A stretch of 64,000 nt of DNA from a virus (IMGVR_UViG_3300032030_000028:46372-110371), one strand, 5' to 3'. Positions 26,069 through 54,742 are shown, numbered from the stretch's first letter. A program made the numbers and translations. Notes: generated by a model from the letters alone, not told the origin.

Positions 26069-26093
26069 AAAAAAAGACCCGAAAAGGTCTTTT
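26069..26093. terminator. Terminator downstream of the minus-strand array
   Basis: AAAAGACC-CGAAAA-GGTCTTTT. Confidence 0.7.
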
Positions 26094-26457
26094 ATTTATC
26101 AATAAAGATAACTCGCCACCCCTGTATGTGAGTTATTGGTTGCCTTATGATTTTATATTTTTCATTTTCAAGTTGCGGAATAGCTTCTTCCTCAAAAGCA
26201 AATGTGTCTATAGGAACAGGTATTGTTTGTTTATAATATGAGCCATTAAATCCAAGATCTTTAATTTCGACATAACTTGGATTTGCATTTTTAGAGATTC
26301 TATACTCACCTTCATTATTTTGTACAATATATCTGCCGGAAAGCAACATAGCTATAATATCTTCAGGGTCGGTATACATAGATTTATTCATATCCCAGGT
26401 TAATCTATGACCGTGGGATCCTTTTCTTCCTATTATAGATTCGCTAATTGATTTCAT
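26092..26457 (-). CDS. SIIGR-leader small protein
   Basis: MKSISESIIGRKG. Confidence 0.75.
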   Translation of the reverse strand: MKSISESIIGRKGSHGHRLTWDMNKSMYTDPEDIIAMLLSGRYIVQNNEGEYRISKNANPSYVEIKDLGFNGSYYKQTIPVPIDTFAFEEEAIPQLENEKYKIIRQPITHIQGWRVIFIDK

Positions 26458-26496
26458 AATTTGTGTTTATTTATATTTTTACGCCGAGCTTTGTTT

Positions 26497-26916
26497 TTAT
26501 ATAATTTTGAATATTCTCAAATATCTTGTGACAATATCAGGAAATTCTATTTCATCTAAAAATTCAATACAATGTCGGAAATCCGATATATAATTACTGA
26601 TATTGGACATTATAATATCATATGCTTCTTGAGGATGTTTTATACTTATATCATTTTCAATTATAAACCAGAATATTTCACCGTGTCGTTGCAACTGATC
26701 CTTTCTAAAACAGGGACACCATTCTACACCGGGAGCCCAAAAAAATACGTGTTTATCATCATCCATAATACACCAATGGTTTGAAGACTCTTCAATATCT
26801 ATTGAATATGCTGTCCGATTAATAAACTTCCATTTGATCTCCCCAGGAATATTCCGGAATTTAACGGATACGGTATTCTCTTTCCTTCCTATTATAGATT
26901 CACTGATTGATTTCAT
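26497..26916 (-). CDS. SIIGR-leader small protein
   Basis: MKSISESIIGRKE. Confidence 0.75.
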   Translation of the reverse strand: MKSISESIIGRKENTVSVKFRNIPGEIKWKFINRTAYSIDIEESSNHWCIMDDDKHVFFWAPGVEWCPCFRKDQLQRHGEIFWFIIENDISIKHPQEAYDIIMSNISNYISDFRHCIEFLDEIEFPDIVTRYLRIFKII

Positions 26917-26919
26917 ATT

Positions 26920-27336
26920 TTAAAATTGTATTTTACCCGAAAATAACCGAAAAAACCTATCCGGATGATGACCAAAATATGATCTAGTATATACCTGTTC
27001 TTGCAACCATTTCGTAGCGTCTTGGATGTCGCTAATATCTTTATCTTTGAATAAAAAAATATCACAATATAACATAACCCGAGTATGAATACTTTGAAGA
27101 TTTTGAAAAGTTCCTACGAATATATTCTCGGCTCCGTCAATATCCCCATCCAGAATAATATTTTCAATATTTTTATTGTGTTGTATTGAACTCCGTATCT
27201 CATCAACTCCGTCTTCGGTTTCGGGAATTATAATGAGTATATCCGATTTGTTTATTTGTCTCATTTGTCTCAATATCCTGGTTAAATAATTAGAACTACC
27301 CCTTCGTCCTATTATAGATTCTCTGATTGATTTCAT
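26920..27336 (-). CDS. SIIGR-leader small protein
   Basis: MKSIRESIIGRRG. Confidence 0.75.
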   Translation of the reverse strand: MKSIRESIIGRRGSSNYLTRILRQMRQINKSDILIIIPETEDGVDEIRSSIQHNKNIENIILDGDIDGAENIFVGTFQNLQSIHTRVMLYCDIFLFKDKDISDIQDATKWLQEQVYTRSYFGHHPDRFFRLFSGKIQF

Positions 27337-27746
27337 AAACTTTTAATATATTTTGAAATATCTGTAACTGTTACAATATTTGATTGATAAATATCATCCA
27401 CGGACTTCATCGATTGTATCCAATCTTTTAATTGGTTGATGTTTTTAAAATGCAATTTGTTTACAACACACAATTTACTATCCGGGTCCGGAAATTCTTT
27501 ACCCCGGTATTTGGGGTAGCCGGATTTAAAATATTTTTTTAATAATCGTATGTCGTCTGTACAAAATACATAATTATTATATCGATATCCATTATTATAT
27601 CGATATCCATGTTCGACCGCAATTTTACATTCCGTTGGAAATATTTCATTAGCTAAAACGTAATCGAATTTTATTGGATACAATATCCATATTTCCGAAG
27701 ACGGTACACCTTTTCTTCCTATTATAGATTCGCTAATTGATTTCAT
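27333..27746 (-). CDS. SIIGR-leader small protein
   Basis: MKSISESIIGRKG. Confidence 0.75.
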   Translation of the reverse strand: MKSISESIIGRKGVPSSEIWILYPIKFDYVLANEIFPTECKIAVEHGYRYNNGYRYNNYVFCTDDIRLLKKYFKSGYPKYRGKEFPDPDSKLCVVNKLHFKNINQLKDWIQSMKSVDDIYQSNIVTVTDISKYIKSL

Positions 27747-27750
27747 GATT

Positions 27751-28170
27751 TTAAAATTGTCTGATTCTTAAATTATACTCTTTAAAGATATTATATAAAT
27801 CTTCTACGGTTTTCACTGATTCTAATTTTCGTGAAGAGAATTTGTATTTAGAATCTACAACTCGCATCGTTTGAGTAATTCTCGGAAAGTTGTTAAGTAT
27901 TTCTTCAACCAATCGAATATATTCAAATTTAAGAGGTTCATCTAAATATTTTAAAACACTTACCAACACATAATCAGATTTATCAAACCAATTTTGAGTT
28001 CTAGCTTTACGAATATGACAATGGTTTTTATCCATTACAATAAAATCTACAAATTCATCATCTCCATAACAAATAGTAATAAGGGATCCTGGTATATGTG
28101 CAAAAAAACGCGGATCATGCGGATCAATAGATAATCTTCGCCCTATTATAGATTCACTGATTGATTTCAT
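27751..28170 (-). CDS. SIIGR-leader small protein
   Basis: MKSISESIIGRRL. Confidence 0.75.
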   Translation of the reverse strand: MKSISESIIGRRLSIDPHDPRFFAHIPGSLITICYGDDEFVDFIVMDKNHCHIRKARTQNWFDKSDYVLVSVLKYLDEPLKFEYIRLVEEILNNFPRITQTMRVVDSKYKFSSRKLESVKTVEDLYNIFKEYNLRIRQF

Positions 28171-28178
28171 ATATTAAT

Positions 28179-29219
28179 TTATTTTGATTTCCAATAGCTA
28201 TAAATGCCTTTCTCTAATTCAAAAGTATTCCAGTGATACCATTCTCCTATAGGATTCTTCTCTTGAACCCATCTCCACATATTTTCAATACCATCATAGA
28301 CGGAGACACTATCTTTATAATCTAATAATCTAATGGATTTATATGGATCCACATCGCAGAACTTGATTTCATTTCGCGGTTCTAAATATACTTTTTCCGC
28401 AGTTCCAGTTACTTCTAGAACCATATCCGCCAGATCGTTGATAGAATATTTTTGAATGCCACCCAAGTTGATAATCTGATTATCCGTATTCTTGTCTTCC
28501 ATACATCTATAAAGAGGTTCTAAAATATTAGTGACTTCCGTGAAGCATCTGGTTTGCTCACCATCGCCATAAATGGTAATAGGGTCTCCATCCTTAATAT
28601 GGTGCATCCAGATCCCCAAAACATTCCGATACGTATCATTCATGTTCTGATTTCTTCCGAAGACATTATGAGGGCGGATGATAGTCCATTTCAATCCGAA
28701 GTACTCTCCGGAGACTTCAATATCTTTTTCACACGCTGCCTTAGAGATAGCATATGGATCTTTCGGAGAAGGTCTTTGAAATTCCATATACGGGGGAGTA
28801 CAATCACCATATACGGACATGGAAGAAGTATATATAAGTTTTTCCACCCCATATTTAACACAAGCATTGAATATATTGGAGGTGGCGACTATATTGTTCT
28901 TGTAGTTAAAGGAACGCATGAAATAAGATAAGATCTCGGCGGCATAAGCGGCAAAGTGATAAACATATTTTATGTTATATTGAGTAAAGATCTCATCCAG
29001 GACTGAAGGAGCGGAATCCGATGCTAGATCGAGTTTCCAATGCCGGATGTTCGGCACTCTGAAATGATTACCCCAGTCCGCTTCTAGATCTATACCTATA
29101 ATTTTCGGATAAAATCCGGATTCATCTAATTGAAGATTGTTACGATTTATGATGTGTTCTATAAATCTGGACCCTATGAGACCTGAGGATCCTGTTACTA
29201 ATATATATTCGTTATTCAT
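28179..29219 (-). CDS. NAD-dependent nucleotide-sugar epimerase/dehydratase (extended SDR)
   Basis: ILVTGSSGLIG, HFAA, SSMSVYG, YAISK, IYGDGEQTRCF. Confidence 0.9.
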   Translation of the reverse strand: MNNEYILVTGSSGLIGSRFIEHIINRNNLQLDESGFYPKIIGIDLEADWGNHFRVPNIRHWKLDLASDSAPSVLDEIFTQYNIKYVYHFAAYAAEILSYFMRSFNYKNNIVATSNIFNACVKYGVEKLIYTSSMSVYGDCTPPYMEFQRPSPKDPYAISKAACEKDIEVSGEYFGLKWTIIRPHNVFGRNQNMNDTYRNVLGIWMHHIKDGDPITIYGDGEQTRCFTEVTNILEPLYRCMEDKNTDNQIINLGGIQKYSINDLADMVLEVTGTAEKVYLEPRNEIKFCDVDPYKSIRLLDYKDSVSVYDGIENMWRWVQEKNPIGEWYHWNTFELEKGIYSYWKSK

Positions 29220-29221
29220 AA

Positions 29222-31126
29222 TTATACACTTGTTGGATATCCAGTAGCTTGCTGAGCTTCCCGGTTAGTTTTATATTTGACGGTACCACCTAAACGTTTA
29301 TAGTCTTGCAAGAATTTTTCCATCATAGAACTATCATAATATCCAAACACTTTAGGAAAATTTTCTTCGCTTATAGCATATGTCTTTCCGGAGTCTCCTT
29401 CTACTTCTCCGGAAGCAAGCATTCTTATAGACATTGATATATCTCCAAGATCAATTTCTTTATATTTACGCAACTTTTCAACAAGATATCGCTCCTTATC
29501 AAAAATCTTTTTTTCTTCCGCGGCGGCACGCTCCCCTTCTATAGCATCAATGTCTTTCAGCTCATGTTCGGTAACTTTCTTTATAAAATCCATAAGACCG
29601 GCTGAAACTACCCAATAACCATGCAAGTTTGGATCATAATCCATTAAGAAACCTCCCATTTTTAATAATTTTACGATATACTCGTCGGCATCACGAGTAG
29701 AATCAAATTTCCACATATTTTCTAACCCAAATTCTTGAATGAATTCTTCAACCTTATATTGGCATTTATTAAAATAACTAAAGGTATTAGAAAATATTTT
29801 ATAAAAATCTTTTTTTCCACACGGAATAATAGCGGTTCTGCCCCGGTAATCTGTGATCCCCGTACGATACATAGCACCGATCATAATAGCAAAAAAAACT
29901 GTTTTGCACAAACGCTCTACATCTACTCCTACATGAAGTATTTGAGAATACCCCGGTGAAGTGAAATCGGAAAATAATCTCTCATAATTCACTTGACTCC
30001 TCTTAGTAGGCATCGGAAGTGCGAGGGTATTCATATTGTACCCTTTATAGCTTCCCCGAGTATTGATAATAAATCCTTCCGTGTCCTTGCCTTTATTGTA
30101 AGTATCGGCAAATACCCCCGCAATCCGGGATAAGAACCCGGGAGTATCATAAATATCTCGCATAATATTTAATACGAAATCATAAACATTTTCTAATCCT
30201 ACAAAAGGAGTATATACGGTCTTTTCGGGCACATATATGATATTGTTATTAGAATCTTTTGTAGGAACTATGGCTATTCTCCCAAATGGATCTTCTATGT
30301 TAGTATCATTACCTGATATTATATAACTTACAAAAGCTCCGTTCCGGATATCTCCGATGATCCGGCTTAGTGCTAATTCACGATCCATATTTGTTGTATT
30401 GCCTCCGTACAACTCCATACAGGATACCCATTTCCGATCCGTAGATTTTCCGGCGATATCATATTTGTGATTACTGAAACATAGCAGCATATCATCTTTA
30501 GGAGTAGACATAAATGTAAGAAGTAAATTATAAGCTTCTAACAACTCTTTTCTTCCGGATAATAATTTAGTAATTTTTATTTGTCTTTCGCGACCATCAT
30601 GCCCTTCATATGTCACTAAATTGGCGGTAAGATCCGCGGATACGTTTTGTATATTTTTATGACCTAAACTATCCCCAATCCAAAAACATATTTGACTTAT
30701 AATATTTTCTTCCCCTAAACTGAAAAGAAGTGCATCATCACCGTCACGAATTGCTTGATCTATTTTAGACTTAAGCAATTTAGACTTAAATTTTAAGGTA
30801 TCCGATAATATTTTAGCATCTTCCAAATTAAATCTCATCTCTCTATGCCACGTAAATGGATTTCCATCAGTATCAAAAGCTGAGGGTTTGTAATCTACTC
30901 TCATAGGTTTCATATCTACCCATTTTCGAGGAATAGGAATGTATATCCTATAACTATTCTGGCTTATAAATCCTCCGTGCTTAGTACAATATTCCCCTAA
31001 GATCTTCCAGAACTCCATCAAATATGTTTCCGCTATATCGGATCTATCAATATTTCCAAAATTATCTCTATAGAAACCATAATTCAGAGCTTCCGACAAA
31101 TTTAATTGCTTTTTAAAAGATTTCAT
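29222..31126 (-). CDS. Hypothetical protein with a capsid-targeting-like leader
   Basis: MKSFKKQLNLSEA; internal YDIAGKSTDRKWVSCM. Confidence 0.55.
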   Translation of the reverse strand: MKSFKKQLNLSEALNYGFYRDNFGNIDRSDIAETYLMEFWKILGEYCTKHGGFISQNSYRIYIPIPRKWVDMKPMRVDYKPSAFDTDGNPFTWHREMRFNLEDAKILSDTLKFKSKLLKSKIDQAIRDGDDALLFSLGEENIISQICFWIGDSLGHKNIQNVSADLTANLVTYEGHDGRERQIKITKLLSGRKELLEAYNLLLTFMSTPKDDMLLCFSNHKYDIAGKSTDRKWVSCMELYGGNTTNMDRELALSRIIGDIRNGAFVSYIISGNDTNIEDPFGRIAIVPTKDSNNNIIYVPEKTVYTPFVGLENVYDFVLNIMRDIYDTPGFLSRIAGVFADTYNKGKDTEGFIINTRGSYKGYNMNTLALPMPTKRSQVNYERLFSDFTSPGYSQILHVGVDVERLCKTVFFAIMIGAMYRTGITDYRGRTAIIPCGKKDFYKIFSNTFSYFNKCQYKVEEFIQEFGLENMWKFDSTRDADEYIVKLLKMGGFLMDYDPNLHGYWVVSAGLMDFIKKVTEHELKDIDAIEGERAAAEEKKIFDKERYLVEKLRKYKEIDLGDISMSIRMLASGEVEGDSGKTYAISEENFPKVFGYYDSSMMEKFLQDYKRLGGTVKYKTNREAQQATGYPTSV

Positions 31127-31144
31127 AGAATTAATACATATTTA

Positions 31145-32947
31145 CTAATATAATAATTCTCGTTGGTTCATAAAATCACCCATTCTCAAATATTCGGATG
31201 CTTGTCTTATCAATCTTGGATCGCTCGAATTGGAAATATTCGGTCCCATAGCGGCATAATAGTTTACATATTTTTCATTAGTGATATTATTCCGGTCTTC
31301 AAAATCTTCTCGCAGATATTTGAATTGTAGAGATTCTTCAGCCAAGACCAGCTGAGCCTGAGACATGACCATATCATCATGTCCGAAACTGGCTTCATAG
31401 GAAGATCCGGATTGGGCGAAATTTTTTAGTTCTAATAGGAATTTGACATCATTGTTTTGAATGTATCCTTTCTCGAAAGCTGTCTTGAAGAGCTTACACA
31501 TCTTATTCTTGCTAGATTTAGTAATCCGAATTCCTAATTTGAACTTGTCGTAATTATCATCATTATAAAATTTGATAATATTGCTATACCAATGTTCTTT
31601 AAGTTTGTCTATCCATAATTCTCCATATAAGTTATATTCTATGGAAATCAGGAATCTTTCCGGGTGTAAATAATTTCTATAGAACTCAGATAATCTAGAA
31701 CAGCATTCTTTATCGTCTAATGTATTGGTCCGAAAGTATCCTATAGTCTTAGTAATAGGATCATTATTGTCGGACACTCCTATAAGTTGATTAAAGGTCT
31801 GCACCGTATAATCTCCACCTATGCCTTCGGAAATATCCGTAGTAAGTACCAAATATTGATTTCGGAGGTCATAAATATCCACATCCGGATCCCAATAAAA
31901 ATCATCATTGAAACATCCCAGCATATCCTTTACTATAAATTCTATAGTGGATTTGGCACAGTCATTGAGTTTCTTTTTAGAAATCAGAGCGTTGTTAGCG
32001 GAGCTGAACTCGGTCCCAAACTGCTCATTGAATGCATCTTCACTTCCTAGGTTGCCTATTTGCATTTGCTTCCAAGCATCATCTCGTTTATACCATATCT
32101 TCTTATCAGGGTCCCATTCCGGAACCTGATCCCAGTCTACCTTAAATGCCGCATATTCATTTTCTCCCTTCACGGCGGCGGTATAGATCTTAGAAAATAA
32201 CTCTAACCCGTTCTGAGTAGAGGTGATCATCAAGCGAGCACGTCCTGCGGAAATGGTAGGGAATATATTTTTATAGAAAGGCTCTTGAATATTAGGGGCG
32301 ATATGAGCAAACTCATCCAACAAGACACAGTGCAAGGTATAGCCGATACCCGAACGCGGTGTGGTGGCTTCGGCGATGATCATGCAGCCGTTATCCAGAG
32401 AGATCTTGCCTTCATTCCAGACCCGGATTCCCGGTTTCAGGAAATAAGGTAGCTCATAGAAGATATCTTTTGTTTTTTTCAAGATTTCTACGGCGGTATC
32501 TCTTTTGTTTCCTAATACCATTGCATTTTTGTCCGTATTGAATATTATATACCAGAGCATGAAAATAGCGGAGGTAGTCGTTTTTCCGGATTGTCTTGCT
32601 GAAAGCATGATACTCAAGCGGTTATTTTGCAAATGTTTTAAGTAATCTTCTTGATAATCTCTCAAAGATATGTTTTTAATTCCATCCGGAGTCATCAGCT
32701 TACAATAGGTGTTGGCAAAATATATGATGTCATTAGCACATTTCTTCCATTCTTTGATTTCCTCGGAAGTTCTTTTATATAGTAAATCGGGCTTTAAGAG
32801 TTTAGTATTTTTCTCATAAAACGGATTGACGGCCAGAGGCAAACCCTTATCGATGCCATCCAGTGCCTGCTTTATGATCTTGCTAGTCCACTGGACGGCT
32901 TCCGCCTTTTTGCCGCCCACGGTTTCTTTTATAGGATTAAAAGCCAT
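31145..32947 (-). CDS. terL: Terminase large subunit (T4 gp17-like)
   Basis: LRDYQ, Walker A ARQSGKTT, Walker B LLDEFAH, ITST, nuclease motifs DISEGIGGDY and GHDDMVM. Confidence 0.95.
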   Translation of the reverse strand: MAFNPIKETVGGKKAEAVQWTSKIIKQALDGIDKGLPLAVNPFYEKNTKLLKPDLLYKRTSEEIKEWKKCANDIIYFANTYCKLMTPDGIKNISLRDYQEDYLKHLQNNRLSIMLSARQSGKTTTSAIFMLWYIIFNTDKNAMVLGNKRDTAVEILKKTKDIFYELPYFLKPGIRVWNEGKISLDNGCMIIAEATTPRSGIGYTLHCVLLDEFAHIAPNIQEPFYKNIFPTISAGRARLMITSTQNGLELFSKIYTAAVKGENEYAAFKVDWDQVPEWDPDKKIWYKRDDAWKQMQIGNLGSEDAFNEQFGTEFSSANNALISKKKLNDCAKSTIEFIVKDMLGCFNDDFYWDPDVDIYDLRNQYLVLTTDISEGIGGDYTVQTFNQLIGVSDNNDPITKTIGYFRTNTLDDKECCSRLSEFYRNYLHPERFLISIEYNLYGELWIDKLKEHWYSNIIKFYNDDNYDKFKLGIRITKSSKNKMCKLFKTAFEKGYIQNNDVKFLLELKNFAQSGSSYEASFGHDDMVMSQAQLVLAEESLQFKYLREDFEDRNNITNEKYVNYYAAMGPNISNSSDPRLIRQASEYLRMGDFMNQRELLY

Positions 32948-39667: not shown

Positions 39668-39694
39668 AAAGGACCTCATTGAGGTCCTTTTTTT
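39668..39694. terminator. Bidirectional terminator
   Basis: AAAGGACCTC-ATT-GAGGTCCTTTTTTT between convergent genes. Confidence 0.85.
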
Positions 39695-40178
39695 ATCGCG
39701 GGAATCTTACTATTTTATGATATTTTCCCCAAGCATTCGGTATCGGATTATATTTTTCCGACCGCTCGAACCCAAATTTCCCATACAGTTTATACAACAT
39801 ATCTAACGGTGTTTTAAACATATCATCCGGATCTCCGACAAGGACAACATTATTATCATCTGCCCATAACGTTAATTCATCTAGGACATTTGTGGCTATC
39901 CCCCGATTGCGAAGAGCGGGTTTTACTTGTATAGATACGAGCTCTACTACCATATTATTTGTGCCAAATGCTTTCTTTTGCGAATCGTCTCGTTTGAGTA
40001 TGAGTTCGCTTAAACCATATTCTTCGGACAATTCCGGATGGAGATTATCCTCCGGGTCCATGCTGATTATAAAAGTCTCTAAGTTTCTTGAAAAATACTT
40101 TTCAAGAGTTTTATATAGTCTCCCTGGTTTTGTTTTTTTAGCAGGTCGTCCTATTATGGATTCAATAATATTTTTCAT
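39693..40178 (-). CDS. GNAT acetyltransferase with SIIGR leader
   Basis: MKNIIESIIGR; VKPALRNRGIA; LYGKFGF. Confidence 0.8.
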   Translation of the reverse strand: MKNIIESIIGRPAKKTKPGRLYKTLEKYFSRNLETFIISMDPEDNLHPELSEEYGLSELILKRDDSQKKAFGTNNMVVELVSIQVKPALRNRGIATNVLDELTLWADDNNVVLVGDPDDMFKTPLDMLYKLYGKFGFERSEKYNPIPNAWGKYHKIVRFPR

Positions 40179-45443: not shown

Positions 45444-47282
45444 ATGGAAACTTATAACCCTTACGAATATAATATATTGCAAGAAGATTTACAAAACCCT
45501 GGAGTGATTTCGGAAGCCCGGGTACAGGATATACCCGGGATGAATGTAACTACTAAATTTAAACCCAAATATTCATCACAAGATATAAAAAACGCCGAAA
45601 AGAAATCTAAAAAGACTATAGCCAGATTTTTTTCTAACCTTTCCAGGTTAGGAATGAATTATGATGAACAAGTTATCAAGAATATGCGGGCTATTCCGGC
45701 GGACAAAAACCTGCTGCCGGAAGAAAGGCAGATCACATATCAAAACCTTTTCCAACAATTACAATCGGCATGGAAGCAAAAATCTAATTCTGATCAATCT
45801 TTTTATGAAAAAGACATTGCCATCAAGAGAGAAAATCTCCGGACTTTAGCGATGCAGCCAGAATTAGAAGATATTTTGGATACATTTTCCAATGAAGCTA
45901 TTGTATATGATTCTAATTTCGTTTATTTTGCCGAACCTTTTATTGATGATAAAGATTTAGTAGAATACAATAAAGATGTCCGCTCCAAAATCAACGATTG
46001 TGTCTCCGCTGGATTCAAACGATTTTATAAGATGCTCCGATGGAGAACCAAGGCGTGGGATGATTTTAAAAGATTTTTAGTGGAAGGTTGCCTAGCCTGG
46101 GAAATTGTATACGACTCTTTAGAGAAACCTACAAAAATTATAGGGCTCGTACCTTTAGATCCGGCCACCCTGACTAAAAAATTCGAGAATGATAAATGGT
46201 ATTGGGTTCAATATAAAGACGTTAAGGCTAAGGAAAGAAAACTATTAGATTCTCAAGTAATATATATAGTCTTTCAGGAAACAGAGGCCATATCGAGAAC
46301 CAGCTATCTGGAACGATTGGTCCGACCGTTTAATATATATAGAATTATCGAACAAGCTCAGATTATATTCTGCGTCACTAATGCTCAATATAAGATGAAA
46401 TTCACCATCCCGGTGAAAGGCATGAATCGGGCATTGGGATCTCAGACATTGAATTCGGCCATGCAGAGATATCGGGAAGATATCAAATTCATATCCGAAA
46501 GCGGCGAGCTGACTATTAATGGACAACCGCAGATGCCGTTCAATAAGGAATATTGGATGGCTGAATCGGAGAGCGGTACACCGGACATCGAAACCCTCGC
46601 TGGAGACTCTGGTCCGGATCTTCTGGATTCCGATTATCTGAAATTCTTCCGGAATCAGCTTTATAAAGTATCTAAAATTCCGTTGAATAGATTTGATGTG
46701 GATAGCGGAGAAGGCTGGTTTGGCACCGATGCCGAATCCTATGCTCGGAACGAGATAGACTTCGGAAGATATGTTACCAGAATGCGGAATATATTCTCTC
46801 AGATCATCTTGAAACCTATCTGGATCCAGCTATGTCTGGATATGCCCGAGATGATGGATTCTCCGGAATTCCAAGATTGCATCCAACTCCACTATCATTC
46901 TTATAATCTATTTGAAGAGATGATGGAAATCCAGCTCATGGATCGCCGTATCGAATCTATTAACAATATGAAAGAATTGCAAGATATGGACATGGAAGGC
47001 AATGAAGTGACTTTCTTTGCCTCTAAATTCCTGGTTCAGAAATATCTGCATCTCTCCGATGCGGATCTCAAGCTCAATGAGAAATATAAACAAGAAGAAG
47101 TAGAGAAATTCAACTTAGCCGGTGGTGAAAGACCACAGCAACCCGGACAATCCGGCCGTTATGGTGGTGGCGCTCCCGGTGGTTGGGAGAGTATGTTAGC
47201 TAAGATGAGCGATATGGAGCGAAGGATAGATGAAAAACTTAAAAAGTATAAAGATATTATCAGCGAATCTGAGGAGTTGTAA
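45444..47282 (+). CDS. Portal protein (T4 gp20-like)
   Basis: SYLERLVRPFN..IEQAQII, KEYWM..GTPDIETL, YKVSKIPLNRF, RNEIDFGRYVTRMRNIF. Confidence 0.92.
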   Translation: METYNPYEYNILQEDLQNPGVISEARVQDIPGMNVTTKFKPKYSSQDIKNAEKKSKKTIARFFSNLSRLGMNYDEQVIKNMRAIPADKNLLPEERQITYQNLFQQLQSAWKQKSNSDQSFYEKDIAIKRENLRTLAMQPELEDILDTFSNEAIVYDSNFVYFAEPFIDDKDLVEYNKDVRSKINDCVSAGFKRFYKMLRWRTKAWDDFKRFLVEGCLAWEIVYDSLEKPTKIIGLVPLDPATLTKKFENDKWYWVQYKDVKAKERKLLDSQVIYIVFQETEAISRTSYLERLVRPFNIYRIIEQAQIIFCVTNAQYKMKFTIPVKGMNRALGSQTLNSAMQRYREDIKFISESGELTINGQPQMPFNKEYWMAESESGTPDIETLAGDSGPDLLDSDYLKFFRNQLYKVSKIPLNRFDVDSGEGWFGTDAESYARNEIDFGRYVTRMRNIFSQIILKPIWIQLCLDMPEMMDSPEFQDCIQLHYHSYNLFEEMMEIQLMDRRIESINNMKELQDMDMEGNEVTFFASKFLVQKYLHLSDADLKLNEKYKQEEVEKFNLAGGERPQQPGQSGRYGGGAPGGWESMLAKMSDMERRIDEKLKKYKDIISESEEL

Positions 47283-47307: not shown

Positions 47308-47952
47308 ATGAAAAGTTTAACGGAATCTATTATAGGGAGACGAAGTGCGGAATTTCGAACACACAATGATCCTACATTAAAAAATCCGGCATTAGAATTT
47401 AATGCTATAGTTAAAGATATAGGAAATTGTCTTAAATCTCGTACTAATTGTTTATTAAATTGTGGGAATTATACAGCCACAGATGGTTTAGAAGATATAA
47501 TTTCGGCAATTCAAAAACGTATTCGAAAATATAAAAATTCTCGCCAATATTTTTATTTCGGAGATGGAGATACGGTGCCTTCCGGATCGCAAAAAGATCT
47601 ATTTGATTACATAACAGATTTTTATCAAAAATATCCTGGTGAACCTAAATATGGAACAACTCCTGGTGAAGATACAATTATTGTTATAGATATTCGTGGC
47701 AATATTAATTTACCTGATAAGACGCCGCAATGGATTGCTGATAAAAATATTACGGTTGTCGTAATTGGTGATAAAAATATACTTTTAGACCACAACTGGG
47801 ATGTTTTTTTAAGAACAGCTAATGAATATATAGAGGGCCCGTATTCATTTGGATATGTACATGATAAATATTTATTCAATAATCGCGGATATAGATTTGA
47901 TGCTGATGATAAAACGCAGAAAACAACACCTCCTATTGTATGGAAACACTAA
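47308..47952 (+). CDS. SIIGR-leader protein (214 aa)
   Basis: Probable start MKSLTESIIGRR at 47308. Confidence 0.75.
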   Translation: MKSLTESIIGRRSAEFRTHNDPTLKNPALEFNAIVKDIGNCLKSRTNCLLNCGNYTATDGLEDIISAIQKRIRKYKNSRQYFYFGDGDTVPSGSQKDLFDYITDFYQKYPGEPKYGTTPGEDTIIVIDIRGNINLPDKTPQWIADKNITVVVIGDKNILLDHNWDVFLRTANEYIEGPYSFGYVHDKYLFNNRGYRFDADDKTQKTTPPIVWKH

Positions 47953-47976
47953 TACTTTAATTGAGAATTTCAATAT

Positions 47977-48006
47977 AAAGGTCTTGCAAGAGACCTTTTA
48001 TTTTTT
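47977..48006 (+). terminator. Terminator (duplicated at 48915)
   Basis: AAAGGTCTT-GCAA-GAGACCTTTT. Confidence 0.75.
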
Positions 48007-48025
48007 ATATAATTATAATGAAAAT

Positions 48026-48467
48026 ATGGAAGAAAAAATTACATTATCCCCATATACCCCGGAATGGGAGGATGCTATAGACATGCAATTCATGCAATCG
48101 GTTATCGACGAGGTCACTCAATCCTGTCTGCTTCCCAACCCTATACCTCTTGCCCGCATTCCTAAGATCATCGGACAGGTAGCTAAGTGGTTCTGGCAGC
48201 ACGATGACACCTCGGTAGAACAGAGATTCTATCTTATTAAAAACGAAGAATTCTGCAAGGGAAATATGTTGAACAAGATAGTACAGCTTCCGGAACAAAT
48301 TATGGCTGTTCAAGGGTGTTATAAAACCAATAATCTCAAATATGGAGTCATGGGTGATTTCTCGGTGGAGAGGATGATGTTGAGCACTTATTCTATGTAT
48401 GGAGCGGAGAATAGATGAGAAGCTTAAAAAGTATAAAGATATTATCAGTGAATCTGAGGAATCATAG
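48026..48467 (+). pseudogene. Chimera: 5' half of the neck gene joined out of frame to a copy of the portal 3' end
   Basis: 48026-48404 matches 48965-49343, and 48398-48467 matches 47213-47282. Confidence 0.9.
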
Positions 48468-48490
48468 TATTATTTAAAAAAAATCAAAAT

Positions 48491-48883
48491 ATGAAAAGTT
48501 TAACGGAATCTATTAAGAATATCAAAGAAAGAAGAACTCCTTATCAAATTGATCAAAATGATCTAAAAAAGGTGGAAAAAGTCTTGAATGATAAAAAAAC
48601 CTGGAAAGAATTATCTAAATTATGCAACCTATCGGAAGAAATCACCAAGCTATATTGTACTAGTCGATTAGAAATGCTTTCGGATCCGGAATGGTATGAA
48701 AACTTCGAAGGCGTGCGCAATCTTAATATGGCTTACGTTATTTCTGAATTAGCCGATACCGATGATGAAGACTTCCAAATAGAATTAGATGATGAAAATA
48801 TTTCCGGATGGGAATGGCAAGATATTAGTAATTTGGTCACCGATGTTATGAACAGATGTCTCAAGGCTTTAAGATACTCTTAA
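48491..48883 (+). CDS. Small acidic protein with MKSLTESI leader
   Basis: First 24 nt identical to the 47308 gene, unrelated afterwards. Confidence 0.75.
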   Translation: MKSLTESIKNIKERRTPYQIDQNDLKKVEKVLNDKKTWKELSKLCNLSEEITKLYCTSRLEMLSDPEWYENFEGVRNLNMAYVISELADTDDEDFQIELDDENISGWEWQDISNLVTDVMNRCLKALRYS

Positions 48884-48914
48884 TAAATAAAATTCAATAT
48901 AAAAATTAACACAC

Positions 48915-48944
48915 AAAGGTCTCGCTAGAGACCTTTTATTTTTT
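48915..48944 (+). terminator. Terminator
   Basis: AAAGGTCTC-GCTA-GAGACCTTTT. Confidence 0.75.
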
Positions 48945-48964
48945 ATATGAACTACAGTAAAAAC

Positions 48965-49777
48965 ATGGAAGAAAAAATCACATTATCCCCATATACCCCG
49001 GAATGGGAGGATGCTATAGACATGCAATTCATGCAATCGGTTATTGATGAGGTCACTCAATCCTGTCTGCTTCCCAACCCTATACCTCTCGCTCGCATCC
49101 CTAAGATCATCGGGCAGGTAGCTAAATGGTTCTGGCAGAACGACGATACCGCGGTAGAACAAAGATTCTATCTTATCAAGAATGAAGAGTTCTGTAAAGG
49201 AAATATGATGAACAAGATAGTGCAGCTTCCGGAACAGATTATGGCCGTTCAGGGATGCTATAAAACTAATAATCTCAAATACGGGGTCATGGGCGATTTC
49301 TCGGTGGAAAGGATGATGTTGAGCACTTATTCTATGTATGGAGGAATAGGAGCAATAGGTGGCGGCATGGGGGCGAGTGCTATAGGATATAACTTAAAGG
49401 ATTATGTTGTATCTATGTATGAAGTAGATACATTTCAGCAGACATTACAGCCTACTCTTTCCTATAACTATAATATGTTTTCCAAGAAACTTATAGTATA
49501 CGGAGATCTTGGATTAAGTGATGTCTTGATAGATTCCTGGAAGAGAATCCGATTGCAAGATCTATATCAAAACTATTATTTTTTCCGTTATTGTGTATGT
49601 ATGGTTATGAAGTCTCTGACTCAGATATTCGGAACATTCACGTTTCGATATCCCGGAGGAGTGGAGATCAGATATGATGACTTTAAAAGCGACGCCCAAG
49701 AAGAAATTGAAAAAATCGAAGAAGAAATTCGGAATCTGCATGCTAACGATTACTTCTTCCAACCAAATACGTTATAA
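48965..49777 (+). CDS. Neck protein (T4 gp13-like)
   Basis: C-terminal PGGVEI..AQEEIEKIEEEI..DYFF typical of gp13; close to the portal. Start is 48965 or 48947. Confidence 0.75.
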   Translation: MEEKITLSPYTPEWEDAIDMQFMQSVIDEVTQSCLLPNPIPLARIPKIIGQVAKWFWQNDDTAVEQRFYLIKNEEFCKGNMMNKIVQLPEQIMAVQGCYKTNNLKYGVMGDFSVERMMLSTYSMYGGIGAIGGGMGASAIGYNLKDYVVSMYEVDTFQQTLQPTLSYNYNMFSKKLIVYGDLGLSDVLIDSWKRIRLQDLYQNYYFFRYCVCMVMKSLTQIFGTFTFRYPGGVEIRYDDFKSDAQEEIEKIEEEIRNLHANDYFFQPNTL

Positions 49778-49779
49778 CT

Positions 49780-50205
49780 ATGAAGACATTACAAGAATCT
49801 ATAATAGGCCGAAAAGGAAGCTATTCCGACATAGTTGAACCATTACATCCAAAAATTATATCAGCATATAGATCGGAACAATATAAATGCATATCTTTTG
49901 AAGATATAGATGAAACATATTTCTGGAATATGAAAGATGAAGCATTTGACATAGCTTCGGAAACATTTGGAATAAATGCTAATTTAATCTCCGGTATATG
50001 GGCTACAACTATATTGTCCTGTAAGACGTCCTATTTTCAGGCCGTATTATATAAGACCAATAAAAATGGAGACTGGTCTTTGATAATAATTAAGAAACCA
50101 AAAGGACATGGAGAGTACAAAGTCGTATTAAGAAAAAACGACATCCCAGATGATACTGTAGAATCCTATAGAGTTTTTAAGGAAATAAATATCGAAAAAC
50201 TATGA
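49780..50205 (+). CDS. SIIGR-leader small protein
   Basis: MKTLQESIIGRKG. Confidence 0.75.
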   Translation: MKTLQESIIGRKGSYSDIVEPLHPKIISAYRSEQYKCISFEDIDETYFWNMKDEAFDIASETFGINANLISGIWATTILSCKTSYFQAVLYKTNKNGDWSLIIIKKPKGHGEYKVVLRKNDIPDDTVESYRVFKEINIEKL

Positions 50206-50576
50206 AAACATTATATGAATCTATAATAGGCAGGAAAGGAACTCGGCATTTTACAGCAAATGATCTCCAAGATGGAGATATCATTATTTTGAGATTAGGT
50301 ATCACCATGCTCATACGTAACAGAGAAGCCCGTGTAAAAAATCCGGGAGGCCGTAGTGTTCTTTCTATGTCATTAAAAGATTTTATCAATCCGGATCTTA
50401 CCGCAAAGACGGATCGGGATGATGATATTATGAAAGTGTATAGAATAGAAAGTGACTTAGAACCTTCTTTAACGGATTTTGATTATTTTAGTTTTGAACT
50501 TCTCAACCTTATTGATAATATCCAACATAATAGGATTAATGGGACGAAGATACGACTGATGTTTGAAAGAAAATAA
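50202..50576 (+). CDS. SIIGR-leader protein, DL..GD/DIM.VYR subfamily
   Basis: MKTLYESIIGRKG; DLQDGDIIILR; DIMKVYR. Confidence 0.75.
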   Translation: MKTLYESIIGRKGTRHFTANDLQDGDIIILRLGITMLIRNREARVKNPGGRSVLSMSLKDFINPDLTAKTDRDDDIMKVYRIESDLEPSLTDFDYFSFELLNLIDNIQHNRINGTKIRLMFERK

Positions 50577-50605
50577 ACAATATTTGATAAATACAAATTA
50601 AAAGT

Positions 50606-50953
50606 ATGAAGACACTGAGTGAATCTATAATCGGTCGAAAAGGAACTCAATTTTCCCCAAAAGACGATATCCAAATAGGAGACATATTGGTGCAGAGAAA
50701 CGGATATTATTGGTACTTGCAAGATGATATGATGCTTATACATCATAGTAAAGGTGGCGAAGATATGACAGTATATATCGATGATTTTTTGGATGCATAT
50801 GATAATATGCTTAGAGATATCAGAGGTGGTGAACACAAGAATTGCGATATCGTATGCATATATCGCTTGGGTAACAGTATTCGTAATCTTGATTATAAAA
50901 AAATTCAAAATTTTATCAACCACAACTCTCCCATATGGAAGGCACGTGATTAA
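50606..50953 (+). CDS. SIIGR-leader protein, same subfamily
   Basis: MKTLSESIIGRKG; DIQIGDILVQRNG; DIVCIYR. Confidence 0.75.
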   Translation: MKTLSESIIGRKGTQFSPKDDIQIGDILVQRNGYYWYLQDDMMLIHHSKGGEDMTVYIDDFLDAYDNMLRDIRGGEHKNCDIVCIYRLGNSIRNLDYKKIQNFINHNSPIWKARD

Positions 50954-50962
50954 AAATATAAT

Positions 50963-51295
50963 ATGAAATCAATAAAAGAATCTATAATAGGAAAAAGAGG
51001 ATCTAAACCTTATAGCTTTTCAAAAGACGACCTCCGGATAAATGATATAGCAGTTACCCGTGATGGTACAATTATGATACTTAATAGCACTGGGCAATTT
51101 GAATATAAAAACGGATGTGCCGGTTTGAATTTTTTTAGTGACGATCTTTATTCTCTTCCGGCTACCATCGGACCACCGAGAAAAGATCGTAATCATGATA
51201 TTATGATGATTTACAGATGCCGGTTAAATTCTTTATATGAACCGGATATAGAAAAACAATTGAAAAAAGAAAAACCTATTTGGAGGCGTTCTTAA
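50963..51295 (+). CDS. SIIGR-leader protein, same subfamily
   Basis: MKSIKESIIGKRG; DLRINDIAVTRDG; DIMMIYR. Confidence 0.75.
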   Translation: MKSIKESIIGKRGSKPYSFSKDDLRINDIAVTRDGTIMILNSTGQFEYKNGCAGLNFFSDDLYSLPATIGPPRKDRNHDIMMIYRCRLNSLYEPDIEKQLKKEKPIWRRS

Positions 51296-51332
51296 AAAGA
51301 CGTTTTATTTACGCCGGAAACATGCTTATTTT

Positions 51333-51383
51333 AAGCGATCGGGGTATAACCAATATAACTACTCATCTAAAACAAGATCGCTT
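51333..51383. repeat. 51-bp palindromic element, copy 3 (core in reverse orientation)
   Basis: Reverse complement reads AAGCGATC-N6-TAGATGAGTAGTTATAT-N12-GATCGCTT, same spacing as copies 1 and 2. Confidence 0.75.
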
Positions 51384-51414
51384 AAAATATCGCAAATATA
51401 AAGTTTTTAAAAAT

Positions 51415-51795
51415 ATGAAACATATACAAGAATCTATAATAGGAAGGAAATCATCCAAAATAGCAATATCTATATCGGATCTCCGGTATGGGGATATTGT
51501 AAAATTAAGAAATCCTTATATATTCGGGATTATAAACAAATCGGAAGATCGAATAATCTGTTATCTGAATGAAAAAGCTACATGTGTATTTATTTTTTTA
51601 GATTATTATTCGGATTTAACTTATATTAAAAACAAGGATTATGACGTTATGGAAGTATGGAGAGATCCATCCCATAAATTAGTTCGCGAACTGGATAAAA
51701 TATCGCGGTATGACGATTTATATTTGAAATTTATATCCGATCTTAAAAATAAAATCTCGGAATACAATATGGTATTAAGGTATGAAAGACAATAA
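51415..51795 (+). CDS. SIIGR-leader protein, same subfamily
   Basis: Probable start MKHIQESIIGRKS at 51415; DLRYGDIVKLRN; DVMEVWR. Confidence 0.75.
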   Translation: MKHIQESIIGRKSSKIAISISDLRYGDIVKLRNPYIFGIINKSEDRIICYLNEKATCVFIFLDYYSDLTYIKNKDYDVMEVWRDPSHKLVRELDKISRYDDLYLKFISDLKNKISEYNMVLRYERQ

Positions 51796-51798
51796 ATT

Positions 51799-51824
51799 AA
51801 AAGGACCACACGGTCCTTTTTTTT
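51799..51824. terminator. Bidirectional terminator
   Basis: AAAAGGACC-ACAC-GGTCCTTTTTTTT between convergent arrays. Confidence 0.8.
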
Positions 51825-52326
51825 ATTTATATTGGAAAGATTCCAACCTTCTTAGCCATCCTTTAAGATAGAATTTTGCCCCATTGCAGTTAGCGAGATA
51901 TGCCCTTCTCTGCCGTATTAATTTATCAAACAATTCCGGAGAAGATTGTGAATTTAATGCAGCCAGTGTTCCGGACCCGAAAACTCCATCCATAGATACG
52001 CCTAAGGATTTCTGTATTAATCTTACATATCCTAATCCAGACATCCAGACCATATCAAAAACTAGGTCCGCCATGGATTGGTTTTTTATATCATCTCCTT
52101 TGATCTTGCTCCAGAATAATGTTCTTGCAATATCTAGTATATCGGCTTCCGTGAGTTTTTTAAGATCTTCAATGGTGGGTACGGGTTTGCCTTTCTTGCG
52201 GCAATATGTCTTATAGGTATTCAAGGTAACTCCTCTCCAGGTGGGTCCGCCGGAGTCTTTGGAGTCGTTAGCATATCCACCTTCCCATCCTAAGGTTTTG
52301 GATAATGATTTTTTCAGATCGGCCAT
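51823..52326 (-). CDS. Endolysin, glycoside hydrolase family 108 with peptidoglycan-binding tail
   Basis: EGGYANDSKDSGGPTWRGVT; C-terminal FYLKGWLRRL. Confidence 0.9.
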   Translation of the reverse strand: MADLKKSLSKTLGWEGGYANDSKDSGGPTWRGVTLNTYKTYCRKKGKPVPTIEDLKKLTEADILDIARTLFWSKIKGDDIKNQSMADLVFDMVWMSGLGYVRLIQKSLGVSMDGVFGSGTLAALNSQSSPELFDKLIRQRRAYLANCNGAKFYLKGWLRRLESFQYK

Positions 52327-52331
52327 ATTTA

Positions 52332-52697
52332 TTACTTTCTTTCAAATACGGTATTTATGCCCCAATGAATGATTCCTTTCAGATTGCGAGCCACAAATGA
52401 TTCAAGATCCGAGCTGACATATTGTTCTTCTGGATATATGACATCCGAGTCTGTAAATCTATATATAGCCATAATATCCCATATTTTATTACGTTTATGT
52501 GTTAAATTTATAGGATTATAACTATCTATATCTATACCTTCATCCGGACCGGTGAATGTATTTTTACCATGAATCATATCTTTATAAACTACTTTATATT
52601 GCCCGTTTCTCAATACAACTACATCTTCGTCTTGTAATTCAATATGTGGTATTACCGTTCCTCTCCGTCCTATTATAGATTCACTAATATGTTTCAT
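52332..52697 (-). CDS. SIIGR-leader protein, same subfamily
   Basis: MKHISESIIGRRG; ELQDEDVVVLRNG; DIMAIYR. Confidence 0.75.
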   Translation of the reverse strand: MKHISESIIGRRGTVIPHIELQDEDVVVLRNGQYKVVYKDMIHGKNTFTGPDEGIDIDSYNPINLTHKRNKIWDIMAIYRFTDSDVIYPEEQYVSSDLESFVARNLKGIIHWGINTVFERK

Positions 52698-52701
52698 ATA
52701 A

Positions 52702-53116
52702 TTAATTATAATATCCCCGATAATATATACGTAAAAATCTATTATATTTTTTTGTTCTAACTAGATTATTGAGGAAATCTTCCGCCTTCGCGGTATTATC
52801 GGCCATCTGTAATTCTTTTACGATCCTACCTGACGGATCCCGATATACTTCCATAATATCCATATGGGTATCATTGGAGCATGCCATATTGTCTTCATAT
52901 AGAGCATATTTTCCTATTAGTGATTTGAACTCATATCCTCCACCGTTCATATAATTTACATATTGTTCTGGGCCATCAAAGTAATCAAGATATTTTCCTA
53001 CAATACCTACGTTTTTATTTCGAAATATTACCACATCCCCCTTCTTTTAGATCATATTTATTTTCTATTGTCGGACGGAATTTTTTTCCTATTATAGATT
53101 CTTGCAATGGCTTCAT
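52702..53116 (-). pseudogene. Frameshifted SIIGK-leader gene
   Basis: ATG 53116 gives MKPLQESIIGKK..DLKEG. Length 415 nt (3n+1). Removing one G from the G5 run at 53037-53041 restores DLKEGDVVIFRN. Confidence 0.8.
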
Positions 53117-53130
53117 ATTTGTGTTTGTGT

Positions 53131-53607
53131 TTATTTTCTTAAAAATAACTTTGAAAAGTTCACCATAGAGAAAAATGTGCTGGGTTCAATAGCCCATTTG
53201 ATTTTCTTATCTTTATGAGCTCGGACATTTCTCAAATAACCGGTAGTAATATTTTCTATGTTTTTATGAACTGTCCTATTGGCAATTTCACCGCTGTGAA
53301 TTACAATCCAATATTGGGTCATTATTGAGTCTTCATTAGCTCCGGACATAATGAGATTTATGAGTTTTTCTGTTTGTGGATATTTTTCTAAATCTAATTT
53401 GTTAAGTTTTTCTATGCTTTTTTTCTGATTAGCATCCAAACTATTAATAAGTTCTTTGGCAGCGGCTCTTTTTCCTTTATCCCGGATAAGTTGCACTATC
53501 GCGGATATACCGTTTGGTATGCAAAAACATGCCGCTAAAAACAATGAAGCCATCATGCCTGAACCAATTTCTATGGATTCATTGATATAACTACCTAAGT
53601 TTTTCAT
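53131..53607 (-). CDS. Membrane-anchored protein with MKNLGSYINES leader
   Basis: Leader nearly identical to that of 5760, followed by a hydrophobic helix. Confidence 0.65.
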   Translation of the reverse strand: MKNLGSYINESIEIGSGMMASLFLAACFCIPNGISAIVQLIRDKGKRAAAKELINSLDANQKKSIEKLNKLDLEKYPQTEKLINLIMSGANEDSIMTQYWIVIHSGEIANRTVHKNIENITTGYLRNVRAHKDKKIKWAIEPSTFFSMVNFSKLFLRK

Positions 53608-54011
53608 TTCATTTTCATTTTTTCTTGTAAATCACTCCAAAGATCCCTAAAACTATTATAATTAGTGCTATTTAGTACACCCCTATATACTTCTATTATA
53701 TCGTCATCAGGATACTCTCGGTTTTGAAGATTCATATCATATTTATCAACTTGATGTAATCCTAAACTCCACATAGCTCCAGGGAAGACACCCTCCGACA
53801 TAATATAAGCTTCAAGGGTGACTTGATTGATCATCTGACGCCGGATCGCGGGTGGACATTGTTTGTAATCTAAGCATACATAACACCTGCCATCCCTTGT
53901 CTTTAAGACATTTAAATGCTTTAGATCCGTTATTTTAGGGTTAGATAATAGTTTTCCTCTGAAATAACCAGTTCCTTTCCGTCCTATTATAGATTCTTGT
54001 AATGTCTTCAT
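53604..54011 (-). CDS. SIIGR-leader protein, same subfamily
   Basis: MKTLQESIIGRKG; DLKHLNVLKTRDG; DIIEVYR. Confidence 0.75.
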   Translation of the reverse strand: MKTLQESIIGRKGTGYFRGKLLSNPKITDLKHLNVLKTRDGRCYVCLDYKQCPPAIRRQMINQVTLEAYIMSEGVFPGAMWSLGLHQVDKYDMNLQNREYPDDDIIEVYRGVLNSTNYNSFRDLWSDLQEKMKMK

Positions 54012-54013
54012 AA

Positions 54014-54361
54014 TTACTCCTTAGATCTGTTTTGATTCCGGATAATCTCTCTCATCAACGCCTTATCGTCATTCAATGATTTTTCCCGATCTATAGCCTG
54101 TCGATATCCGGACTGGCATAATTTTAATGAATCTTCTAAAACAATGATTTTTATGCCCAATGAATCTATAATCATCTTTTGAGAAATTATCACGGAATCT
54201 TTAGAAGTAATGGTTTCCGTATATTGTACATCTTTCCACTGATCCTTAGTCTTATGAGAGCAACGAGAACATGTTTGTAAACATATGACACATAATAGAA
54301 TAATTATGACTATTTTGGAGTTATCTAATATTTTTTTGAAAAATTCTTTTATTTTTTCCAT
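54014..54361 (-). CDS. Membrane-anchored coiled-coil protein (spanin/lipoprotein-like)
   Basis: IVIIILLCVICLQTC followed by a coiled coil; no leader. Confidence 0.4.
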   Translation of the reverse strand: MEKIKEFFKKILDNSKIVIIILLCVICLQTCSRCSHKTKDQWKDVQYTETITSKDSVIISQKMIIDSLGIKIIVLEDSLKLCQSGYRQAIDREKSLNDDKALMREIIRNQNRSKE

Positions 54362-54742
54362 TTAAACTATAAATTTTATTTTTTCTTGCAAGATATCCCA
54401 AATTGTTTGAAAATCTGGATAATCTTCATTATTTGCAAATATACCCCTATATACAGATATTATATCATATTCCTTTGAACTTCTACATGTAAGGTTTTGA
54501 TAATAGTTATCTAAACCTAATGGAGATATAATGGGCACGATGGGATCAATTCTATAAGCATCGAAATCATCAATTCTAATTTGTTGTTCACGAAGCCAAT
54601 CTGGATCTATACATATATAAATATCACTATTTGCACACTTCACCACATCTAGGTGTTGCAAATCTTTTAGTTTAGGATTAGATAACTTATACCCGACTCC
54701 CGATGATTTTCTCCCTATTATAGATTCTTGTATATGCTTCAT
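54362..54742 (-). CDS. SIIGR-leader protein, close paralogue of 53604
   Basis: Probable start MKHIQESIIGRKS at 54742; LSNPK..DL.HL and DII.VYRG shared. Confidence 0.75.
   Translation of the reverse strand: MKHIQESIIGRKSSGVGYKLSNPKLKDLQHLDVVKCANSDIYICIDPDWLREQQIRIDDFDAYRIDPIVPIISPLGLDNYYQNLTCRSSKEYDIISVYRGIFANNEDYPDFQTIWDILQEKIKFIV

Follow-up and report, generated by a model that had tools for sequence, protein, structure and literature searches.

A 14-nucleotide motif frozen in the leaders of many small phage genes: a possible in-frame homology patch for the shuffling of cargo genes

We analysed a 64,000-nucleotide stretch of viral DNA (hereafter the window), which makes up bases 46372-110371 of a 110,371-base IMG/VR virus contig (IMGVR_UViG_3300032030_000028; G000 below). 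It comes from a large tailed phage whose head module is of the T4 type, and its GC content is about 36 per cent. The window carries 17 small genes that open with a common leader, MK-x-[IL]-x-ESIIG[RK][KR]G, followed by a variable cargo, and codons 6-10 of this leader (E-S-I-I-G) are nearly always spelled by the same 14-mer, GAATCTATAATAGG. The codons of this 14-mer are nearly invariant, the borders of the invariant block are sharp, and the breaks of homology between related phages cluster at the leader. We put at about one in two the probability that the 14-mer is a short in-frame homology patch for the shuffling of cargos, kept uniform by short-patch concerted evolution.

Three further contigs of the same phage group come from the metagenome that yielded G000. 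The first, G002 (115 kb), is collinear with G000 at about 77 per cent nucleotide identity (portal protein, 97% identical), and G001 (130 kb) is collinear with G003 (55 kb). A tandem repeat of about 99 bp at the end of G000 also opens G003, and G003 is therefore taken to continue the G000 genome. Below, phage A stands for G000 and G003, and phage B for G002 and G001; the four contigs total about 410 kb and the genomes are incomplete (G000 is 49% complete according to CheckV). Phage C is an independent lineage, used together with A and B in a three-way comparison of junctions. A megablast search with 12 kb against the phage collection gave no match.

When up to one mismatch is allowed, the 14-mer matches the window 18 times, where 0.13 matches would be expected, and none of 100 shuffled sequences reached 18. 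One near-match, at 19503-19516 (-), is not a leader and was set aside as unrelated; every true match corresponds to codons 6-10 of a small open reading frame (ORF) starting with MK-x-[IL]-x-E. An earlier reading of this DNA, made from the sequence alone (the sequence-only reading), had counted 14 exact copies among 17 genes, and the same count was obtained here, the other three copies being single synonymous variants. It had placed the members between positions 26092 and 54742, which is right for most of them but leaves out the exact copy at 7408-7421. The three exceptions that it listed (TCC at 40178, ATT at 47308 and ATC at 50606) are real variants, but these coordinates are those of the gene starts, and the motifs themselves lie at the positions given in table 1.

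The exact 14-mer is present in 24 of the 30 leader genes of the whole 110-kb contig and in 93 of the 106 leader genes of phages A and B. At least 43 further leaders were found in ten metagenome contigs from other samples, which are 72-80 per cent identical to A or B; among the matches listed, 35 of these 43 are exact, and the total across A, B and the other metagenomes is 128 of 149. A degenerate pattern, defined at the protein level so as to allow every synonymous spelling, was run on the viral collection and on the metagenomes. In the viral collection only these phages carry the leader, and some 30 single hits in unrelated viral contigs (MK...E[TCW]IIG followed by hydrophobic residues) were judged to be due to chance. 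No relative spells ESIIG with other codons among the metagenome matches listed. A protein search with the leader alone returned four cargo orthologues only and zero leader-only relatives.

Each genome carries about 50 leader genes, in numerous arrays on both strands. By BLASTP, the cargos of the 106 leader genes form 53 clusters, of which 26 are singletons, and no Pfam family was found for the 10 cargos checked. The genes mostly abut, as the sequence-only reading had stated: 37 of the 106 overlap the upstream ORF as ATGA, and most of the others lie within 20 nt of it. The local homogeneity of the leaders that it described is also seen, since adjacent leaders with unrelated cargo have an identity of 0.64 over codons 2-5, versus 0.53 for distant pairs (P = 6e-5).

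The conservation of the 14-mer was weighed against codon usage, as had been proposed, and codon bias is excluded as the cause of its invariance. The borders of the frozen block match those of the run of invariant residues, E-S-I-I-G, by which 10 of its 14 bases are determined in any case. On the basis of genome codon usage (GAA 0.72, TCT 0.30 and ATA 0.38), the probability of an exact 14-mer is 0.03, against an observed fraction of 0.86-0.88; for the 93 exact copies of the four contigs, the binomial probability is about 1e-125 if the copies are independent. Codon heterozygosity at E6, S7, I8 and I9 is 0.02, 0.11, 0.06 and 0.09, versus 0.40, 0.80, 0.66 and 0.66 expected. At K2, H3, I4, G10, R11, G13 and S14 it is close to the expectation from genome usage, in agreement with the earlier remark that neighbouring codons vary freely, and the silent sites 3-6 nt from the core are saturated.

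The non-independence of paralogues was handled by comparing 28 reciprocal-best cargo pairs between phages A and B. In these pairs, codon differences that preserve the amino acid amount to 8 per cent in the core, versus 24 per cent predicted from the E, S, I and I codons of the cargo (P = 8e-6); for pairs with at least 60 per cent protein identity, the values are 9.5 and 19 per cent (P = 0.012). The flanking codons, by contrast, outpace the divergence of the cargo (K2, 0.38 versus 0.12; G10, 0.68 versus 0.42 for cargo Gly codons). The third base of Gly10, directly after the 14-mer, differs in 19 of the 28 pairs, and cargo-homologous pairs are no more alike at this base than random pairs; a hypervariable position abuts the frozen block. 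Cargo homologues without any remaining DNA similarity still share the 14-mer. These comparisons support a constraint on the leader that reaches beyond the protein level.

The frozen codons GAA, TCT and ATA are each the modal codon of the genome for their amino acid. In degenerate leaders (ESIx), TCT and TCC are found in the ratio 4:4, as are ATA and ATT. Variant cores are more frequent in solitary leader genes (4 of 12) than in array genes (9 of 94; P = 0.04), and for two of the solitary genes the orthologues in phages A, B and C do not have the same core. The orthologues of the gene at 39693-40178 in phages B and C carry another variant (ATT), and the phage C orthologue of the leader gene with its motif at 47323 carries ATC.

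A second check suggested by the sequence-only reading was whether the breakpoints in related genomes fall in the 14-mer, and they are largely tied to the leader. When the 51 leaders of phage A are compared with phage B, six are collinear on both sides, 25 are discontinuous at the leader (a single side is homologous, or the two sides match different B leaders) and 20 have neither side homologous. Where two leader genes have only the upstream flank in common, identity is 0.86-0.89 as far as the ATG, is still raised in codons 3-5 and is at background from the base after the 14-mer. Where they have only the cargo in common, neither the upstream DNA nor codons 10-12 exceed background identity, and the rise begins at codon 13. 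The breaks of homology scatter between codon 3 and codon 13, and some junctions lie upstream of the ATG. The regions upstream of the leaders are unrelated to each other (background identity 0.32-0.40).

Several types of rearrangement could be followed individually. A one-cassette indel is found at G002 30415: its upstream flank is that of G000 24483 and its cargo that of G000 24892, and the leaders of these two G000 genes have 31 identical bases in common. As an example of cargo replacement, G000 6836 and G002 12208 are about 97 per cent identical through the leader and unrelated about 12 nt later. There are also tandem copy-number differences, for example copies at 10257, 10574 and 10894 in G002 versus one copy in G000. 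Protein-level homologues of the same cargo are present in different arrays of A and B (G000 74102 and G001 69821), and in this pair DNA similarity remains in the leader only; the DNA of paralogous or translocated cargos is too diverged for cassette ends to be mapped.

The segment 50217-52682 of the window has in G000 the orientation opposite to that in G002 and in phage C, and both ends of this inversion are in leaders. The gene order is neck, c1, c2-c5 (+), endolysin (-), c6 (-) in G000; neck, c1, c6 (+), endolysin (+) in phage C; and neck, c6 (+), endolysin (+), c5 (-), c3 (-) in G002. The left junction falls in a 40-nt leader window (50202-50240) in which both partners overlap: homology between G000 and C stops 10 nt past the 14-mer, and the same C leader continues into the inverted gene 52332-52697. 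At the right junction, the G002 leader 101067 has an upstream flank that matches the flank of G000 99472 and a cargo that matches G000 96992 from just after the 14-mer. Both arrangements recur in several independent assemblies, so the rearrangements are not assembly artefacts. The cargo replacements, the one-cassette indel and both inversion ends at the leader support the homology-driven shuffling of leader-cargo cassettes that had been put forward from the sequence of the window.

Among known systems, the nearest are the leaders of the T-even internal proteins and the shuffling described below for RB49 and phi1. The internal proteins of the T-even phages include IPI, IPII, IPIII and over 30 variants, encoded at two hypervariable internal-protein (IP) loci. 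Judging from its sequence, the leader described here is most likely a T4-type capsid-targeting sequence or propeptide. As in T4, a short N-terminal leader is common to otherwise unrelated small proteins, and six of the ten residues of MKTYQEFIAE, with which T4 ipII and ipIII start, are identical to MKTLQESIIG found here. The form of the leader is MK-[TSH]-[IL]-x-E-S-I-I-G; in every case its residues 4-6 read [IL]-x-E, the (L/I)-x-E type of motif at which gp21-type proteases cleave, and the phage encodes such a prohead protease (Peptidase_S77) and a Gp23-type capsid protein, both of them on G003 and again on G001. The DNA of T4 ipII and ipIII is identical over the 30-nt leader and 15 nt upstream, and 582 T-even records match this leader DNA, at one or two places per genome. 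The T-even IP loci are a hotspot of diverse injected anti-restriction proteins sharing only the leader (PMC3012670, PMC12373910). There are also clear differences: T-even phages have one to three copies in two loci, whereas the present phages have about 50 or more in each genome, spread over many arrays and both strands; the frozen DNA is restricted here to 14 coding bases with saturated silent sites beside them, and upstream regulatory DNA is not shared; and the replication and recombination genes are not recognisably T4-like, bar a distant gp43.

In the explanation that we favour, the 14-mer would be the nucleotide core of an in-frame leader of about 40 nt, which would encode a propeptide for capsid targeting and processing by the prohead protease (MK-x-[IL]-x-E, then SIIGRKG). 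With about 50 copies in each genome, the leader could work as a short homology patch, at which the replication and recombination machinery of the phage (by crossover, annealing or template switching) would join the upstream part of one gene to the cargo of another, in frame. The outcomes would be cargo replacement, gain or loss of cassettes, tandem duplication and, where two leaders are in opposite orientation, inversion. The freezing of the silent sites would then reflect concerted evolution within an island of identity: since codon 5 and the R/K codons vary and bound the identity block on either side, heteroduplex formation or re-annealing of nascent strands would be confined to the block, and the majority sequence would replace single changes. 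A start region with little structure may also be modestly preferred, which would add to the effect. Divergence of the flanks faster than that of the cargo is expected if leader flanks are exchanged among paralogues, and modal codons at all frozen sites are predicted by majority-rule homogenisation but not by a specific recognition motif. The modal codons, the equal codon use in degenerate leaders and the variants of solitary genes favour homogenisation over a recognised signal.

Recombination of T4-type phages at patches of less than 50 bp, with conserved motifs mediating the shuffling of ORFans, has been described (PMC2839356). In the T4-type phages RB49 and phi1, elements named PeSLs (promoter-early stem-loops) mediate modular shuffling, which is ascribed to the phages' own homologous recombination at such patches (Arbiol et al. 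2010, PMC2839356); excised mini-circles were detected, the authors compare the system to integrons without an integrase, and PeSL-like elements were noted at the T-even internal-protein loci (PMC2839356). The likeness to the present case is that a repeated conserved motif flanks variable ORFans and that the ends of indels and replacements between close relatives lie in the motif. PeSLs, however, are intergenic elements of about 100 bp with a promoter and a terminator-like stem-loop, whereas the motif described here is much shorter and stands in the reading frame, so that each cargo that arrives is fused to a peptide tag. The evidence for PeSLs includes the mini-circles; that for the present leaders consists of sequence comparisons.

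Several observations weigh against a homology patch. A perfect block of 14 nt is very short for homologous recombination. Plain crossovers would not erase core variants, and the conversion that would do so is a process that we infer; moreover, the hypervariable third base of Gly10 demands an extremely sharp conversion border. Orthologous cores evolve two to three times more slowly than matched cargo codons, which direct selection on a functional motif explains equally well. All the lineages found belong to one habitat pool. The breakpoints are not all at the motif: G002 is without the whole five-gene array at 26092-28170, and this deletion spans from the first ATG to the last few codons of the last cargo, with neither end in a 14-mer. 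Finally, the search of the phage contigs for a recombinase or annealing protein gave no RecA hit in Pfam, and tblastn with T4 UvsX, gp46 and gp47 was empty; T4 gp41, gp44 and gp45 gave no hit either, and gp43 was the sole, distant match among the T4 replication and recombination queries.

In the main rival explanation, possible but more doubtful, the 14-mer acts in cis as an expression signal of the mRNA or gene that carries it, and recombination at the leader is a by-product. The signal could be an operator for a translational repressor or endoribonuclease, a 'downstream box' enhancer (+16 to +29) or the DNA site of a regulator; in T4, RegA and RegB act on many early mRNAs. A protein-binding site within the coding DNA, which the sequence-only reading had given as an alternative, is possible. 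Such a signal would account for the same four silent bases in about 130 copies, with borders sharp to one nucleotide, for the slow evolution of the core even in stably inherited orthologues and for the fixed position of the motif relative to the start codon. The native start region is 1.5 kcal/mol less structured than the average synonymous alternative, and a shared signal is conceivable in operon-like arrays, where the ATGA overlaps couple genes translationally. However, no RegA homologue was detected in the phage contigs, either by Pfam (PF01818, a weak search, as the control genomes were also without the family) or by tblastn with T4 RegA. No antisense or trans RNA partner was found above chance: there is no 14/14 complement outside the leaders, and sites with 12-13 complementary pairs number 115, versus 80 in shuffled sequence. 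All four frozen codons are merely modal. Solitary leader genes, which would need the signal equally, are more often variant, including the two orthologues that differ among A, B and C, and the fast divergence of the flanks is not predicted. RNA accessibility was rejected as the cause of the freeze: since 18 per cent of the synonymous alternatives are still less structured, it cannot fix ATA over ATT or TCT over TCA, and it explains the AT-rich direction, not the invariance.

That the 14-mer is a dedicated cis signal for a phage factor, with its silent sites under direct selection, we regard as unlikely. If true, the factor might be a nuclease or strand-transfer protein driving the in-frame exchange of capsid-loaded effectors, in effect a recombinase-less 'effector integron', or an RNA-binding regulator controlling about 50 injected proteins as one regulon.

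Two further functions were considered and discarded. As a general promoter, the TATAAT within the 14-mer appears unsupported, all strong 14-mer matches being in-frame leaders. The +1 frame of the motif reads TAA TAG, and no upstream ORF ends at these hidden stops. The sequence TATAAATA is present upstream of 1 leader gene out of 96, versus 21 out of 395 genes without the leader. A candidate promoter element of this phage group is the word TATTATTT(A), which shows an enrichment of about 15-fold in the 60 nt ahead of start codons in the four contigs and often directly follows terminator-like hairpins.

It is very unlikely that the 14-mer is the core site of a dedicated site-specific recombinase moving single cassettes, and the integron-like version of the shuffling proposed in the sequence-only reading did not hold. 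The motif is short, invariant and partly symmetrical, many homology breaks lie at it, and an exchange there would be in frame. As in integrons, the arrays consist of single-gene cassettes with one short repeated site each, and their content differs between close relatives. No recombinase had been seen in the window, and this negative now extends to the 410 kb of phages A and B, where PF00589 and PF00239 (tyrosine and serine recombinases) gave no hit in these incomplete genomes, whereas the control genomes gave hits. The palindromic core noticed earlier is present, but it is weak evidence alone because its arms span only 4 bp around a central A, and the 14-mer has no attC-like structure or hairpin. 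In contrast to integrons, the site is at the 5' coding end and not at the 3' end of the cassette, and the junctions are not at one position but are spread over codons 3-13, sometimes upstream of the ATG. The motif is also ignored by the array deletion in G002. The lack of a tyrosine or serine recombinase in the 410 kb and the dispersal of the junctions over the leader together make this mechanism unlikely.

The absence of any special constraint, the leaders being young copies of one ancestor or the product of start-proximal codon bias, is barely credible: the three codons are the commonest for their amino acids and an open start region mildly favours AT-rich codons, but this is contradicted by the gap between predicted and observed exact copies (0.03 versus 0.86-0.88), by the saturated silent sites close by, by the 14-mers kept in cargo homologues without DNA similarity and in lineages from different samples that are 72-80 per cent identical overall, and by the comparison of the 28 A-B pairs.

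The features of the window are listed in table 1. A sigma-70-like factor and other larger proteins have at their start leaders of related but distinct sequence, with [IL]-x-E-S but without the 14-mer (MKLFTEQILES, MKNIGSYIQES, MNLKNYILES, MKNLGSYINES and MKSLLGYIKES). Before the window, a 513-aa ORF (G000:C1:4646-6187 (-)) has a complete leader and an exact 14-mer internally (SEYINESIIGRKG), without an ATG, as though a leader-cargo cassette had been joined in frame to an upstream protein.

Table 1. Leader genes, 14-mers and neighbouring genes in the window. Positions are counted from the first base of the window.
Feature	Position	Strand	Remarks
Exact 14-mer, solitary leader gene 7393-7812 (MKHISESIIGRRG)	7408-7421	+	
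Array of five abutting leader-cargo genes	26092-28170	-	Exact 14-mers start at 26429, 26888, 27308, 27718 and 28142
Variant 14-mer (TCC), solitary leader gene 39693-40178	40150-40163	-	Weak GNAT-like similarity
Variant 14-mer (ATT), solitary leader gene just after the portal gene	47323-47336	+	
Array of five leader-cargo genes after the gp13-like neck gene	49780-51795	+	14-mers at 49795, 50217, 50621, 50978 and 51430
Variant 14-mer (ATC) in the second array	50621-50634	+	
Leader of the second gene of this array; left inversion junction versus phages B and C	50202-50240	+	Three-way comparison narrows it to about 40 nt
Segment between two inverted leaders	50217-52682		Four cargo genes, endolysin 51823-52326 and cargo gene 52332-52697
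Exact 14-mer, right-hand inverted leader, gene 52332-52697	52669-52682	-	
Exact 14-mer of a decayed cassette	53088-53101	-	Leader ORF of 33 aa; cargo-like ORF 52702-53034 in another frame
Exact 14-mer, leader gene 53604-54011	53983-53996	-	Collinear with G002 101650
Exact 14-mer, leader gene 54362-54742	54714-54727	-	Cargo orthologous to G002 102379, upstream flank not
[IL]-x-E-S leader proteins without the 14-mer	5760-7316, 7816-8946	+	
[IL]-x-E-S leader proteins without the 14-mer	53131-53607, 54750-55226, 55278-56666	-	
Large terminase	31145-32947		
Portal gene	45444-47282		Match to portal PHROG family; phage C orthologue is Portal_T4 (Pfam)
gp13-like neck gene	48947-49777		
GH108 endolysin	51823-52326		

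After the portal gene, the gp13-like neck gene is present a second time as a partial copy (47849-48418), and a leader gene stands ahead of each of the two copies (MKSLTESIIGRRS at 47308 and MKSLTESIKNIKE at 48491). The Peptidase_S77 protease (G003:36388-37881 and G001:36102-37517) is fused to a C-terminal region with several 12-residue repeats containing IVEEYS, whose number differs between phages A and B; the protein is possibly a fusion of protease and scaffold. The tandem repeat shared by G000 and G003 (about 99 bp) is GC-rich (52%) and lies inside an ORF (window 62750-64000 and G003:1-1100), and the assembly probably broke there. ARAGORN predicts 24 tRNA genes in G000, with a tRNA region at G000:C1:28281-36039, 10-18 kb before the start of the window; they include a suppressor-type anticodon CTA (reading TAG), three tRNA(CAT) and a tmRNA-like call. 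Despite the CTA tRNA, TAG still serves as the stop codon in 67 of the 491 called ORFs.

Protein-injecting phages use injected proteins against host defences, T4 with only a handful of them. The phage group described here appears to carry about 50 tagged genes per genome, and the DNA of the tag seems to be the joint for in-frame exchange of cargos between arrays and between co-occurring phages. If true, this would be a simple, recombinase-free route to the rapid turnover of an injected arsenal, and a clear example from nature of recombination, or an undescribed signal, freezing silent sites. The 14-mer or the leader can be used as a probe for harvesting such cargo genes from metagenomes and, if the leader directs packaging, it would mark the fusion point for loading foreign proteins into this capsid.

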